This document shows positions 15,052-17,749 of a DNA stretch of 46,716 nt, piece after piece (position 1 is the first letter of the stretch; every line of letters begins with the position of its first letter). The stretch is from NCBI GenBank assembly GCA_018580065.1, contig GCA_018580065.1_4845.1; one strand, written 5' to 3'. This DNA is from a phage. Below the pieces are notes generated by a model. It saw only the letters and a program-made list of their open reading frames with translations. It made no database searches and had not been told where the DNA came from. The position numbers and the translations under genes were made by a program.

Positions 15052-15078
15052 CAAGCCCCTTCACGGGGCTTTTTTATT
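15052..15078 (+). terminator. intrinsic terminator
   Basis: AGCCCC-ttca-CGGGGCT followed by TTTTTTATT. Confidence 0.7.
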
Positions 15079-15319
15079 GGAAGTTGTCACGATACCATCC
15101 CTGCCAATCGTAAATAGTCATCTTCCTTTTGGTAGCGCACTCCGTATTCTGGTTTTCTATAACAATGCTCTCATCGCTGTTTTTCGGTGCCACTTTCGAC
15201 AATTCGCACACCTCCCCCAACATTTCTGCTGACGGCTGAGTCTGCGTTGAGAGCTGATTGGCGCAACCGGATATAGTCATCATCAAAAGTGCAAACGGTA
15301 CGGTTCTGGTCGGAGACAT
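15074..15319 (-). CDS. o-spanin (Rz1-like outer-membrane lipoprotein)
   Basis: Lipobox LLMMTISGC after short signal; overlaps 3' end of i-spanin gene in another frame. Confidence 0.6.
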   Translation of the reverse strand: MSPTRTVPFALLMMTISGCANQLSTQTQPSAEMLGEVCELSKVAPKNSDESIVIENQNTECATKRKMTIYDWQGWYRDNFQ

Positions 15320-15560
15320 ATTTCACCACATCGCGATAAATGGTTTTGTATTTAGTTTCGGTCACCACGCGCACCTGTTGGGATTGCGCGGTTGACTTTG
15401 CCTGTTTGTTTTCTGCGTTCTGTTTGCGCTTGGCGGCATCAAGATTGACCTTATCACTATGAGCATACCATCCTTTCAGGTAGCCAGCGCCAAATAATAG
15501 CGAACCAATAGCAATGCCGGTCAATAGCAGAATTATAATTAATTTAACTTTTACCATCAT
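15171..15560 (-). CDS. i-spanin (Rz-like)
   Basis: N-terminal TM helix then charged coiled-coil; downstream of holin and endolysin. Confidence 0.6.
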   Translation of the reverse strand: MMVKVKLIIILLLTGIAIGSLLFGAGYLKGWYAHSDKVNLDAAKRKQNAENKQAKSTAQSQQVRVVTETKYKTIYRDVVKYVSDQNRTVCTFDDDYIRLRQSALNADSAVSRNVGGGVRIVESGTEKQR

Positions 15561-15780
15561 TGCGCAGCCTCCGGTTTTCCTTCCTCATGCCGTGCATCTT
15601 GCCGAGAATACCAACCAGCATGATTGAATAGCTCACACCTTTGACCACGATTGGCGGCAGCGCTGCTTTCAGGTCGTCCGGCATCATTACCCACACATGC
15701 ATCATTGCGTCAGGCCATAGTTGCAACAGTGAGCAGAACGAAATCCACGCGCCGAGCAGCCAGTTGCTTAGCTTTTTCAT
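15544..15780 (-). CDS. holin-like protein (two TM helices, charged C-terminus)
   Basis: 78 aa, two hydrophobic helices, C-terminal KENRRLRNDGKS; within lysis cassette. Confidence 0.5.
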   Translation of the reverse strand: MKKLSNWLLGAWISFCSLLQLWPDAMMHVWVMMPDDLKAALPPIVVKGVSYSIMLVGILGKMHGMRKENRRLRNDGKS

Positions 15781-16241
15781 GTCACAGCCCCGCCAGCATC
15801 CTTGTATACCTGAATCAGCTTATCCAGTTTCTGCTCATGCTGACCATAGCCAGCACCCGGCAATGAAGCCCAGCGGGAACGGCATTTATGGATGGCATCA
15901 GCAATGCGACCAGCCTCGATGTCGGTAGTGGCCTTGCATTCACGGATTAGCTGCATTGCAATGGCATCCTGTGATGCAGGAGAGAAGTCAGGCAGGCGCA
16001 GTTGCTTTTTGTATGCATCATAAAACTTAGCCAGCACCTGATAGCGCCCGGCGGCGGTGGATTTGATGCCCAGCCTAGGCAGACTAATCAGCTTGCGCGG
16101 GTGATCGGAATAGTCAGTAAACAGTGAGCCGCCAACGATCACATCATAACCATGATTATTGGTTTTCTGTCGCCCGTTATCAGTCCCCTCGCTGTACGCC
16201 AGCATATCCAGAAACGCCTTCATGTTTTTGCTAATAGCCAT
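15777..16241 (-). CDS. endolysin, lambda R-type lytic transglycosylase
   Basis: MKAFLDMLAYSEGTDNGRQKTNNHGYDVIVGG...YSDHPR...WASLPGAGYGQ closely matches lambda R; start MAISKN at 16241 (ORF track extends to 16322). Confidence 0.85.
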   Translation of the reverse strand: MAISKNMKAFLDMLAYSEGTDNGRQKTNNHGYDVIVGGSLFTDYSDHPRKLISLPRLGIKSTAAGRYQVLAKFYDAYKKQLRLPDFSPASQDAIAMQLIRECKATTDIEAGRIADAIHKCRSRWASLPGAGYGQHEQKLDKLIQVYKDAGGAVT

Positions 16242-16509
16242 ACCAGTAAACCTCTTTTTCAGCTTTGCGTTTTGCCTTATCACCAGTCTTCTCGCACCAC
16301 ACGATGAAATGCGCAACAGCACATGAGAAGCAGCGGAGATTGTGCTTCTTCAGAAGCGTTGATTTACGGAACACGTCAATGCCAATGTCAGTAGCAAGGC
16401 TCGTCAGCGCGTCGAACTGATTCTGTGTCGTCTTGGTAGTGATATAGGGCGATATATCTACGGCATCGGTGATTCCAAGGGTCTCTATGCCGCGTTGCGA
16501 TAGTTTCAT
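16231..16509 (-). CDS. truncated GH24 lysozyme-like protein lacking the catalytic N-lobe
   Basis: TQNQFDALTSLATDIGIDVFRKSTLLKKHNL matches lysozyme C-lobe; only about 20 aa precede it; AGGAGG RBS, in-frame stop 5 codons upstream of ATG. Confidence 0.5.
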   Translation of the reverse strand: MKLSQRGIETLGITDAVDISPYITTKTTQNQFDALTSLATDIGIDVFRKSTLLKKHNLRCFSCAVAHFIVWCEKTGDKAKRKAEKEVYWYGY

Positions 16510-16553
16510 CCTGCCTCCTGCTCAAATAATAACTAATTCTATCACAATGGCTA

Positions 16554-16584
16554 TTGACGTAGATTGAGCGGTGGTGCATAGTAT
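16554..16584 (+). promoter_or_regulatory. sigma70-like promoter with GACGTAGA dyad
   Basis: TTGACGTAGATT 16554-16565, -10 candidates CATAGT/TAGTAT 16577-16584, inverted copy ATCTACATCA 16583-16592. Confidence 0.5.
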
Positions 16585-16614
16585 CTACATCAAGTGATGA
16601 GTGAGGTGATGAAG

Positions 16615-16998: not shown

Positions 16999-17277
16999 AT
17001 GACAAAACGCGAATTACACCAATTATTTAACAAATGGCTTGATTCTGTTGGTTTTGGCGACATGAATGATAGAGAGAAGGACTTGCTTTGGTTTGGGTTT
17101 TCTGTTGGATATTGCCACGACAATAACAAGACCATGCTCGCAGCACTCCAGCAGCTTCTGGAAATCTACGACGACCATTCAGGAAAAGCCTGGACAACAT
17201 CAAGCAAGCGTCGTGCTCTGGATAATGCGCGCGATGCGGTTAATAAAGCGCTGGGGGAGCGCAATGAAACAATGTGA
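16999..17277 (+). CDS. hypothetical protein
   Basis: ORF track from GTG 16987; ATG at 16999. Confidence 0.45.
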   Translation: MTKRELHQLFNKWLDSVGFGDMNDREKDLLWFGFSVGYCHDNNKTMLAALQQLLEIYDDHSGKAWTTSSKRRALDNARDAVNKALGERNETM

Positions 17278-17749
17278 TCTTTTCCGTGTTCTTAGTTATA
17301 ACCCTGAATCTGGTGAATTCACGTGGATTAAATCAAGAAGACATGGGTTTAGCGGTCGAAAGGCTGGGTCGGTAAATGGGAAAGGGTACATACAGATCTG
17401 CATTGATGGAAAGCTTTATCTTGCGCACAGGCTTGCTCTTCTATACGTGACAGGAGAGATGCCAAAGGAGGTGGATCATATTAACAGGGTGAGAGATGAC
17501 AATAGATTATGCAACTTAAGGCCATGCACTTCATCTGAAAATAAGCACAACAAGGATATCACATCCAGAAACAAAACAGGGATGAAGGGCGTCAGCTGGT
17601 ATCCTGCCGGAAATTCATGGCGAGTAAGGATATGCGTAAATAAAACACAGATTCATCTGGGCTACTACGAAGACATTGAGCTGGCAGAGCTTGTGTCGCA
17701 AGAGGCGAGAATTAAATACGCAGGAGATTTTAATTATGAAGCTTATTGA
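17264..17749 (+). CDS. HNH homing endonuclease with AP2-like domain (second copy)
   Basis: VDHINRVRDDNRLCNLRPCTSSENKHN HNH motif; GVSWYPAGNSWRVRI AP2-like; paralogous to 6787..7281; ORF track begins upstream in-frame at 17066. Confidence 0.8.
   Translation: MKQCDLFRVLSYNPESGEFTWIKSRRHGFSGRKAGSVNGKGYIQICIDGKLYLAHRLALLYVTGEMPKEVDHINRVRDDNRLCNLRPCTSSENKHNKDITSRNKTGMKGVSWYPAGNSWRVRICVNKTQIHLGYYEDIELAELVSQEARIKYAGDFNYEAY

Follow-up and report, generated by a model that had tools for sequence, protein, structure and literature searches.

We analyzed a stretch of phage DNA of 46,716 nucleotides (contig GCA_018580065.1_4845.1; hereafter the window, by which we mean this whole stretch) with a focus on ORF92, a short open reading frame (ORF) that is the first gene of a lysis operon on the minus strand. 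The window is a siphophage genome of ~46.7 kb, with ~90-91% identity to the Escherichia phages ECO95 1-6-1 and Sa179lw (Buchananvirus); it is also related to Salmonella phage Skate. The lysis operon comprises five genes, which are listed here in order of transcription together with the ribosome-binding site (RBS) of the first:

16514-16519, minus strand: Shine-Dalgarno sequence AGGAGG of ORF92, 4 nt before the ATG
16231..16509, minus strand: ORF92, 92 amino acids (aa), ATG start, TAG stop; helix A, a short linker and the C-terminal lobe of a GH24 lysozyme
15777..16241, minus strand: R, a lambda R-type lytic transglycosylase and the actual endolysin, 154 aa; PHROG 90 (endolysin)
15544..15780, minus strand: DUF7940 holin, 78 aa; Pfam PF25612, PHROG 13249 (holin); a class II holin in the Skate annotation
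15171..15560, minus strand: i-spanin, 129 aa, assigned from the ORF list and from the position and annotation of its Skate and Sa179lw equivalents
15074..15319, minus strand: o-spanin, 81 aa, overlapping the i-spanin gene; lipobox TISG|C read from the translation

R matched lambda lysozyme (3D3D/1AM7) with E=2e-61 over residues 3-153 (phmmer against PDB), and it keeps the catalytic Glu in an SEGT motif (AYSEGTD, aligned to AWSEGTD of lambda lysozyme). A preliminary description of this DNA, made from the letters alone, had reported the AGGAGG sequence and an 11-nt overlap between ORF92 and the transglycosylase gene, and both are present, at 16514-16519 and 16231-16241, respectively. The AGGAGG sequence is conserved in relatives, including the locus of Salmonella phage D10, which encodes a full-length lysozyme.

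Anatomy and origin of ORF92

ORF92 matched the Pfam family PF00959 (Phage_lysozyme) with 41.4 bits (cut-off 22.3; E=2e-10) over residues 19-78 only, corresponding to profile positions 55-114 of 125. In a sequence search, GH24 chains in PDB were matched at E=2e-9 to 1e-6, again through their C-terminal halves only. Alignments to the nearest full-length relatives, those of Salmonella phage D10 and Klebsiella phage 6991, revealed a single gap of ~50 residues after residue 15 (MAFFT was among the methods used). This gap takes out the beta-sheet lobe, which forms half of the substrate cleft in the two-lobed GH24 fold, and with it the catalytic Asp and Thr (equivalents of D20 and T26 of T4 lysozyme). 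The column of the catalytic Glu (E11 of T4 lysozyme; xEG motif) is retained and is occupied by D15 in ORF92. Among 17 short members of the family this column holds D in 13, N in three and E in one; E also occurs there in some representatives of types B and C, which are described below, and the position is not conserved. The Gly that follows this column is replaced by Ala in the short members. The parts of ORF92 can be delimited as follows:

16474..16509, minus strand: helix A equivalent, residues 1-12 (MKLSQRGIETLG), near-neutral at the exposed positions 8, 10 and 12
16462..16467, minus strand: deletion junction between residues 15 and 16, placed by the alignments, with D15 in the catalytic-Glu column
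16339..16431, minus strand: core GH24 motif, residues 27-57 (TTQNQFDALTSLATDIGIDVFRKSTLLKKHN), the most constrained part of ORF92
16321..16332, minus strand: CxxC motif (C60-F-S-C63), at the start of the helix formed by residues 61-75 (helix boundaries from the structural model)
16234..16248, minus strand: residues 88-92, C-terminal aromatic tail Y-W-Y-G-Y, found in the short family and otherwise only in two chimeric full-length forms; extends in part over the R start codon

Changes are also found in what is left of the cleft. The [YF]-N pair that is invariant in active enzymes is T-D in ORF92 and, in a column comparison, T or A followed by D, S or A across all short members; in all of them G45 is replaced by D and the GKVxxGL loop is deleted. 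The short proteins have family-specific acidic substitutions (D18, D41 and D45) that were not found in active enzymes. H56 and the CxxC motif are invariant both in the short family and in the full-length clade of D10 and the Klebsiella phages, and absent from other GH24 lysozymes: the CxxC column holds C in 17 of 17 short proteins and in 5 of 5 full-length members of that clade, and D or G in 14 other lysozymes. The motif is older than the truncation and would be oxidisable in the periplasm. The aromatic tail lies internally in type C (YYYGYPAEQSE), and is therefore not explained by the overlap with R alone.

The AlphaFold2 (AF2) model of ORF92 has six helices and no strands over its 92 residues, with a predicted local distance difference test score (pLDDT) of 92.3 and a predicted template modelling score (pTM) of 0.86. 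In this model helix A is predicted to pack on the C-terminal helical lobe, as it does in GH24 enzymes. Foldseek matched the model to the C-lobes of GH24 endolysins with query-normalized TM-scores (TMq) of 0.67-0.82 (8APP, 9KBS, 7M5I, 3HDE, 2ANV, 6H9D), and in the best of these (TMq 0.81-0.82; 7m5i, 6h9d) the alignment runs from helix A over the gap into the C-lobe. The only match of the same size in the BFVD viral library was the orthologue of phage KFS-SE2. By its alignments, ORF92 consists of helix A and the C-lobe, that is, the discontinuous C-terminal subdomain known from T4 lysozyme, and can be placed in GH24 by descent. We also considered a split enzyme with the N-terminal lobe encoded elsewhere; no such lobe was found in the window by tblastn with the N-lobes of D10, 6991 and P22 (best E=0.37), and this candidate was dropped.

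The T4 lysozyme subdomain comprises residues 1-12 and 75-164 and folds autonomously without residues 13-74 (bioRxiv 10.1101/353649). ORF92 retains the same parts of the fold as the fragment studied by the Marqusee laboratory, an N-terminal helix and the C-lobe. That fragment folds alone in the laboratory, and the same is predicted with high confidence for ORF92. The T4 fragment, in contrast, is a circularly permuted laboratory construct of marginal stability. ORF92 occurs naturally, keeps the native order of its parts, falls in the P22/phage-21 branch of GH24 and is under selection. It is a natural counterpart of the classic subdomain experiments, with the N-terminal subdomain removed at the same boundaries.

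The loci of Salmonella phage D10 (Skatevirus) and Klebsiella phage 6991 carry a full GH24 lysozyme of 145-146 aa (QXV72061 and URY99550, respectively) in the slot of ORF92, as the first lysis gene before the DUF7940 holin, followed by holin and spanin and with no R gene. These lysozymes are 47-51% identical to ORF92 over the common part and have the H56 and CxxC signature, and their loci share the promoter, the RBS and the first codons with that of ORF92. Unlike ORF92, they possess the catalytic E/D/T residues and the beta-sheet lobe, together with the [YF]-N pair and the GKVxxGL loop. Each is the sole endolysin of its cassette; ORF92 is always accompanied by a further enzyme encoded downstream. 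Nucleotide identity between D10 and the window is 88-94% in three stretches: the intergenic region with the promoter, the first ~9 codons of the gene and the holin gene; the blastn homology over the ORF92 start spans 16606..16484. Between the shared flanks, blastn found no DNA homology. Since the flanks are common and the interior has no homology as DNA, the rest of ORF92 together with R, on the one hand, and the rest of the full lysozyme, on the other, are alternative modules. The common H56 and CxxC signature identifies the D10/Klebsiella clade as the parent lineage. Together, the protein alignments and locus comparisons show that ORF92 descends from a full-length lysozyme found in this group of phages and that it has lost ~50 residues, the entire catalytic beta-sheet lobe.

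These results confirm what the preliminary description observed and support its interpretation in part. It had recognized a truncated GH24 ORF with the C-lobe kept, which agrees with the Pfam match to the C-terminal half and the ~50-residue gap. Its claim that the lobe with the catalytic Glu and Asp is reduced is borne out by the position of Asp and Thr in the deleted segment and by D15 in the Glu column. The alignment that it proposed maps the deletion to residue 15 and finds the catalytic residues missing. It had further suggested that an ancestral lysozyme was replaced by a different endolysin, and that related phages might carry the full-length gene at this position; D10 and 6991 do so, without R, and D10 shares its flanks with the window.

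Distribution, partner endolysins and selection

The gene (279 nt) is annotated in Skate, Sa179lw, KFS-SE2, Sf11 and many other phages, and at least 80% of its length is covered in ~185 deposited phage records, far beyond what chance would give. PHROG treats it as a separate family, 10457; no NCBIfam model for it was found, the SpmX-domain model being a weak match. The Skate genome announcement mentions a transglycosylase-type endolysin only (PMC6606912), and in the literature we found no study describing a protein of this type. A paper on two endolysins of vB_Sal-S-S10 was set aside, as it concerns an unrelated Jerseyvirus ORF. Metagenomic searches revealed three diverged types with one common architecture:

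Type A (window): 92 aa; lambda-R type endolysin downstream
Type B: 93-96 aa, 53-58% identity to ORF92; lambda-R type endolysin downstream
Type C: 90-98 aa, ~38% identity to ORF92; GH108 + PG_binding_3 endolysin downstream

The three types agree in N-terminal length up to F32, and in each of them the CxxC motif is present, the GKVxxGL loop is deleted and a Y-[WY]-Y-G-Y motif occurs towards the C-terminus. The equal N-terminal length points to a single deletion of the lobe and not a separate one in type C. The short gene overlaps the start of the downstream endolysin gene by 11-14 nt in types A and B and by 4 nt in type C, and it always lies upstream of a DUF7940 holin gene. The R proteins beside type B are 94-96% identical to that of the window, and holin alleles (60-99% identity) assort independently of the type of the short protein. 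No type C locus was found in IMG/VR.

We took a census of 77 loci in IMG/VR, anchored on the holin. The short gene was followed by R in 36 loci, a full GH24 lysozyme stood alone in 29, and neither arrangement was present in the remaining 12. R without the short gene and the short gene alone were each found in none of the 77, and the short form was never the sole endolysin. These counts, together with the type C loci, show that ORF92 occurs only in cassettes with a complete endolysin of another family, lambda-R or GH108. The endolysin slot beside DUF7940-type holins is itself highly exchangeable, as it holds GH24, short GH24 with lambda-R, short GH24 with GH108, a PF11860 muramidase or GH108 alone, depending on the phage (examples at L126:1797-2504, L128:1929-2501 and L062:1667-2236).

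Two short metagenomic contigs hold forms that combine features of the full-length and short proteins. P0221 (L066:332-763) is a full-length GH24 protein whose catalytic residues are intact and whose C-terminal third resembles type B; the gene after it encodes an R homologue that shares 83% identity with the R of the window. P0223 (L065:95-538) is also full-length, with the catalytic Glu changed to Tyr, the Thr to Arg and a type-C C-terminal third, and it is followed by GH108. Compared region by region, the identities point to chimeras in both cases, the crossover lying close to the conserved STLLKKHN segment; alternatively, the two may be intermediates in evolution. Intermediate or chimeric forms, full-length with R or full-length with dead catalytic residues and GH108, are thus still present in metagenomes. 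A 101-aa protein on a JGI contig (P0071, L061:120-425) has the layout of helix A plus C-lobe and an SLTADIGID motif, and lacks both CxxC and aromatic tail; none of its neighbours matched a Pfam family. It may be an independent or a very remote case of a lobe-less GH24 protein, and PHROG 7910 (a profile of 96 positions) may be another.

The ORF92 gene is intact in all 40 loci in which we analyzed it. Over these loci, pairwise dN/dS by the Nei-Gojobori method (NG86) was 0.12-0.13 for ORF92, 0.12 for the holin and 0.036 for R (R lay at 0.04-0.05 over the pairwise and tree-based analyses). Counting changes on a neighbour-joining tree, we obtained 260 synonymous and 107 non-synonymous changes in ORF92 (dN/dS ratio, omega, 0.118), where neutrality would give a ratio of ~1:3.5. 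Constraint was strongest in the core, residues 27-57 (130 synonymous and 24 non-synonymous changes; omega ~0.05), and weakest in helix A, residues 1-12 (17 and 41; omega ~0.7). Synonymous change was also low in the last 16 codons, where the RBS of R is located. Within types, dN/dS was 0.12 for A, 0.11-0.12 for B and 0.21 for C, and three type B contigs differ at synonymous sites only; between types, synonymous sites are near saturation. These substitution counts show that purifying selection has acted on the ORF92 protein while the family diverged deeply and the partner enzyme was exchanged. The catalytic motif is lost while purifying selection persists, as expected of a pseudo-enzyme, and a retained non-catalytic function is strongly implied.

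Two frameshifted members, P0029 and P0034 (L057 and L058; ENA ERZ1948697/ERZ1948695), were considered as a sign of relaxed constraint and dropped. Their contigs have 5-12 indels per ~1.1 kb and R is broken as well, which identifies the frameshifts as long-read assembly artefacts. Such artefactual protein clusters can mimic relaxed selection in protein-only surveys.

Possible roles of the retained fragment

As ORF92 has neither the catalytic residues nor the two-lobed fold, it should be filed as a GH24-derived pseudo-enzyme and not as an endolysin. We consider it very probable that ORF92 is non-catalytic, selected and derived by deletion of the lobe after a second endolysin had arrived. Regarding its role, the explanation that we prefer, with a probability of about 0.55, is that the C-terminal subdomain of a D10-type GH24 lysozyme has been kept as a non-catalytic accessory of lysis. 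Under this explanation ORF92 would no longer cut peptidoglycan. ORF92 looks like a real, translated gene; it would be made from the late transcript that it has in common with the endolysin and, because it has no signal or signal-anchor-release (SAR) sequence, would accumulate in the cytoplasm. Its part in lysis would be non-enzymatic and exerted through binding. Tentatively, we picture ORF92 as passing the holin lesion together with the endolysin and acting in the periplasm as a folded binding module. There it may bind murein or the endolysin itself, and contacts would be made through the oxidisable CxxC, the family-specific aromatic tail and the surface of the half-cleft, which is strongly conserved. 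The ancestral mode of substrate binding has probably been altered, since [YF]-N and G45 are changed and the loop is deleted in every short member; the features that are new and conserved, namely the acidic substitutions and the tail of aromatic residues, suggest that a different interface has formed. An extended version seems rather speculative to us: the GH24 C-terminal subdomain would have turned into a dedicated accessory of lysis, of a kind not seen before. As a folded binding module, it would have an aromatic tail and an H-x3-C-x2-C site sensitive to redox state or metal, and it would partner whichever endolysin or holin is present and tune lysis. An accessory module would explain why ORF92 survived the replacement of the endolysin, and, if this is true, the parent lysozymes have a second, non-enzymatic function in the C-lobe.

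Two systems offer partial parallels. The muramidase domain of SpmX in Caulobacterales is a co-opted phage GH24 lysin (bioRxiv 10.1101/418723; PDB 6H9D). It matches the ORF92 model in structure and exemplifies the phage GH24 fold in a non-lytic job. However, SpmX contains the whole two-lobed domain within a larger bacterial membrane protein with a function in cell polarity, whereas ORF92 is a free-standing half domain in a phage lysis operon. A stand-alone SH3 protein in the lysis module of Drexlerviridae has been proposed as an auxiliary lysis component (PMC13164509). Like ORF92, it is small and non-catalytic and is encoded beside the holin, endolysin and spanin of a Gram-negative phage. Unlike ORF92, it is an SH3 beta-barrel, is not derived from an endolysin, occurs in ~1/3 of the family and is not tied to endolysin replacement.

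Several observations weigh against the explanation that we prefer. The helix A region is near-neutral, and some type C members (90 aa) lack helix A. The omega of ORF92 is 3-10 times that of the partner endolysin. The altered cleft residues and the deleted loop make it less likely that peptidoglycan is still bound in the ancestral way. The R proteins beside types A and B are 94-96% identical, and the short proteins of these two types only 58%, so that there is no sign of a co-evolved, tight interface between ORF92 and R. Furthermore, holins 45-59% identical to that of the window work with a PF11860 muramidase and no GH24 fragment, and the DUF7940 holins of Septimatrevirus work with GH108 alone; the fragment is therefore not generally required for lysis with such holins. 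An obligatory partnership of ORF92 with the DUF7940 holin was rejected on the same grounds.

The main alternative to an accessory acting in the periplasm is a cytoplasmic regulator of lysis timing that acts on the holin. In this antiholin-like role the soluble fragment would set the time of hole formation by attaching, ahead of triggering, to the DUF7940 holin at its basic C-terminal tail or to some other lysis protein. The C-lobe of the full-length ancestor would already have had this as a second job. Short soluble proteins that are linked to lysis and bind the holin or the endolysin are known, such as the T4 antiholin RIII and the chaperone Gp1 of mycobacteriophage Ms6, whose gene lies immediately upstream of the endolysin gene and overlaps it. 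Neither of these has any sequence or fold relation to ORF92. A regulator would fit a small, soluble, helical protein encoded first in the operon that persists whichever enzyme is the endolysin. It would also fit the family-specific acidic residues and the H56 and CxxC signature, which is common to the short and D10-type full-length forms, both beside the same holin family. However, related holins function without any GH24 lobe, as described above, and holin alleles vary independently of the type of ORF92. On balance, we regard a regulator of this kind as unlikely.

Alternatively, ORF92 may function outside lysis, for example by blocking the wall-degrading enzyme of a competitor phage or a host factor, and merely be carried along by the late transcript of the lysis genes. 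Purifying selection without catalytic residues, the new conserved surface features and the lack of co-variation of ORF92 with R or the holin are consistent with this. Nevertheless, we consider it quite unlikely, given the strict tie to the lysis cassette and the replacement endolysin (0/77 loci otherwise) and the fact that the sequence indicates no other activity, although no PADLOC or other search aimed at one was made.

It might also be argued that the frame is kept only to carry ribosomes from the promoter-proximal RBS to the endolysin gene, by coupling or by protection from Rho or RNases, with the peptide itself irrelevant. The overlap with the endolysin start, the strong RBS and the paucity of synonymous changes in the last 16 codons could be read in this way. 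However, constraint acts on the amino acids (omega 0.05 in the core and 0.12 over the whole gene), with synonymous sites close to saturated when types are compared. R is preceded by a GAGG RBS of its own, and coupling does not need 92 codons. In addition, the R initiation region is less structured than shuffled controls (minimum free energy -11.6, z=+1.49), so nothing needs unmasking, which weakens a leader function; we judge it improbable. An RNA structure that masks the R start and requires translation of ORF92 was rejected on the same z-score. A fusion of the C-lobe to R by +1 frameshifting was also rejected: the R frame, which is +1 relative to ORF92, is open for 36 codons upstream in most loci and for 7 or 10 in two, and no canonical slippery site was found for it.

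The preliminary description had left open whether ORF92 is a remnant of the replaced lysozyme or a repurposed fragment. A pseudogene-like leftover that has merely escaped deletion so far would account for the presence of ORF92 only where another endolysin is present, for the loss of catalytic parts by different routes (deletion and, in P0223, point changes) and for the near-neutrality of helix A. Yet every one of the 40 loci is intact, length is kept (92-98 aa) down to 38% identity, the 107 non-synonymous against 260 synonymous changes contrast with the ~3.5:1 that neutrality predicts, and the only frameshifted variants come from the indel-ridden long-read contigs. A neutral remnant, which we hold to be very improbable, is already contradicted by the selection data. 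Of the two possibilities, that of a repurposed fragment fits better, as the gene is intact and selected (dN/dS ~0.12), has kept its architecture through divergence to 38% identity and has outlived the swap of lambda-R for GH108.

Finally, a miniature muramidase that is still active is hardly credible, even though the Skate GenBank record labels the short gene "endolysin/glycosidase, has Ex5Dx8T motif" and an acidic residue (D, or E in some members) occupies the catalytic-Glu column, because canonical GH24 spacing is E-x8-D/C-x5-T (E11/D20/T26 in T4 lysozyme), of which the Skate motif (E9, D15, T24) is the reverse, its residues vary between members (positions 9-10 are K or E, position 15 is D, N or E), the beta-sheet half of the cleft is wholly absent, and the short form is never the only endolysin.

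The ~185 deposited phage genomes list the gene as an endolysin or lysozyme, and several of these phages have been proposed as biocontrol agents. The sequence evidence speaks strongly against an endolysin, and cloning ORF92 as an antibacterial enzyme would therefore probably mislead. Lysis cassettes of Gram-negative hosts are thought to need a holin, an endolysin and a spanin only, and ORF92 would be a conserved, non-catalytic fourth component; its survival through endolysin swaps suggests an unrecognised function, either of the fragment or of the C-lobe of the parent enzymes. The value of the finding lies in the correction of a widespread annotation and in the indication of a testable fourth lysis component, and the question can be addressed directly in tractable E. 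coli and Salmonella phages.

Control regions and other observations around the cassette

Two putative control elements border the lysis operon:

16526..16553, minus strand: promoter-like region of the lysis operon, from a consensus scan and conservation over 14 loci
15053..15071, no strand assigned: GC-rich hairpin between the convergent operons, with a weaker T-run on the minus strand

The promoter-like region contains a conserved extended -10-like sequence, TGATAGAAT, at 16536-16544, and we infer from sequence conservation that it may drive the lysis operon. The hairpin is the likely end of the lysis transcript. Within the intergenic region 16510-16593, the block TTGACGTAGATTGA (16554-16567 on the plus strand; TCAATCTACGTCAA on the other strand) is unchanged in 14 loci, including those of Klebsiella phages, and holds the -35-like hexamer of a divergent plus-strand promoter. 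The divergent control region, ~70 nt in all, is better conserved than the adjoining genes.

The 129-aa i-spanin (15171-15560, minus strand) is a minority allele, with a close match in 2 of 40 short-type loci (L036, L037). Most relatives have a DUF2514 spanin of ~163-165 aa instead, and in Sa179lw an additional small ORF separates holin and spanin; this variation represents further mosaicism within the lysis cassette. The record OR544125.1 is named Acinetobacter phage vB_AbaM_AB4P2, but its holin shares 96% identity with that of the Salmonella/E. coli phage group of the window, and the host assignment or sample purity of the record seems doubtful. In the divergent operon, ~750 nt from the lysis cassette, the window contains a 161-aa homing-endonuclease-like gene with HNH_3 and AP2 domains (17264-17749, plus strand). 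Loci of types B and C (L005, L059) likewise have HNH_3 genes next to the cassette, and such genes may help to drive the exchange of lysis modules.

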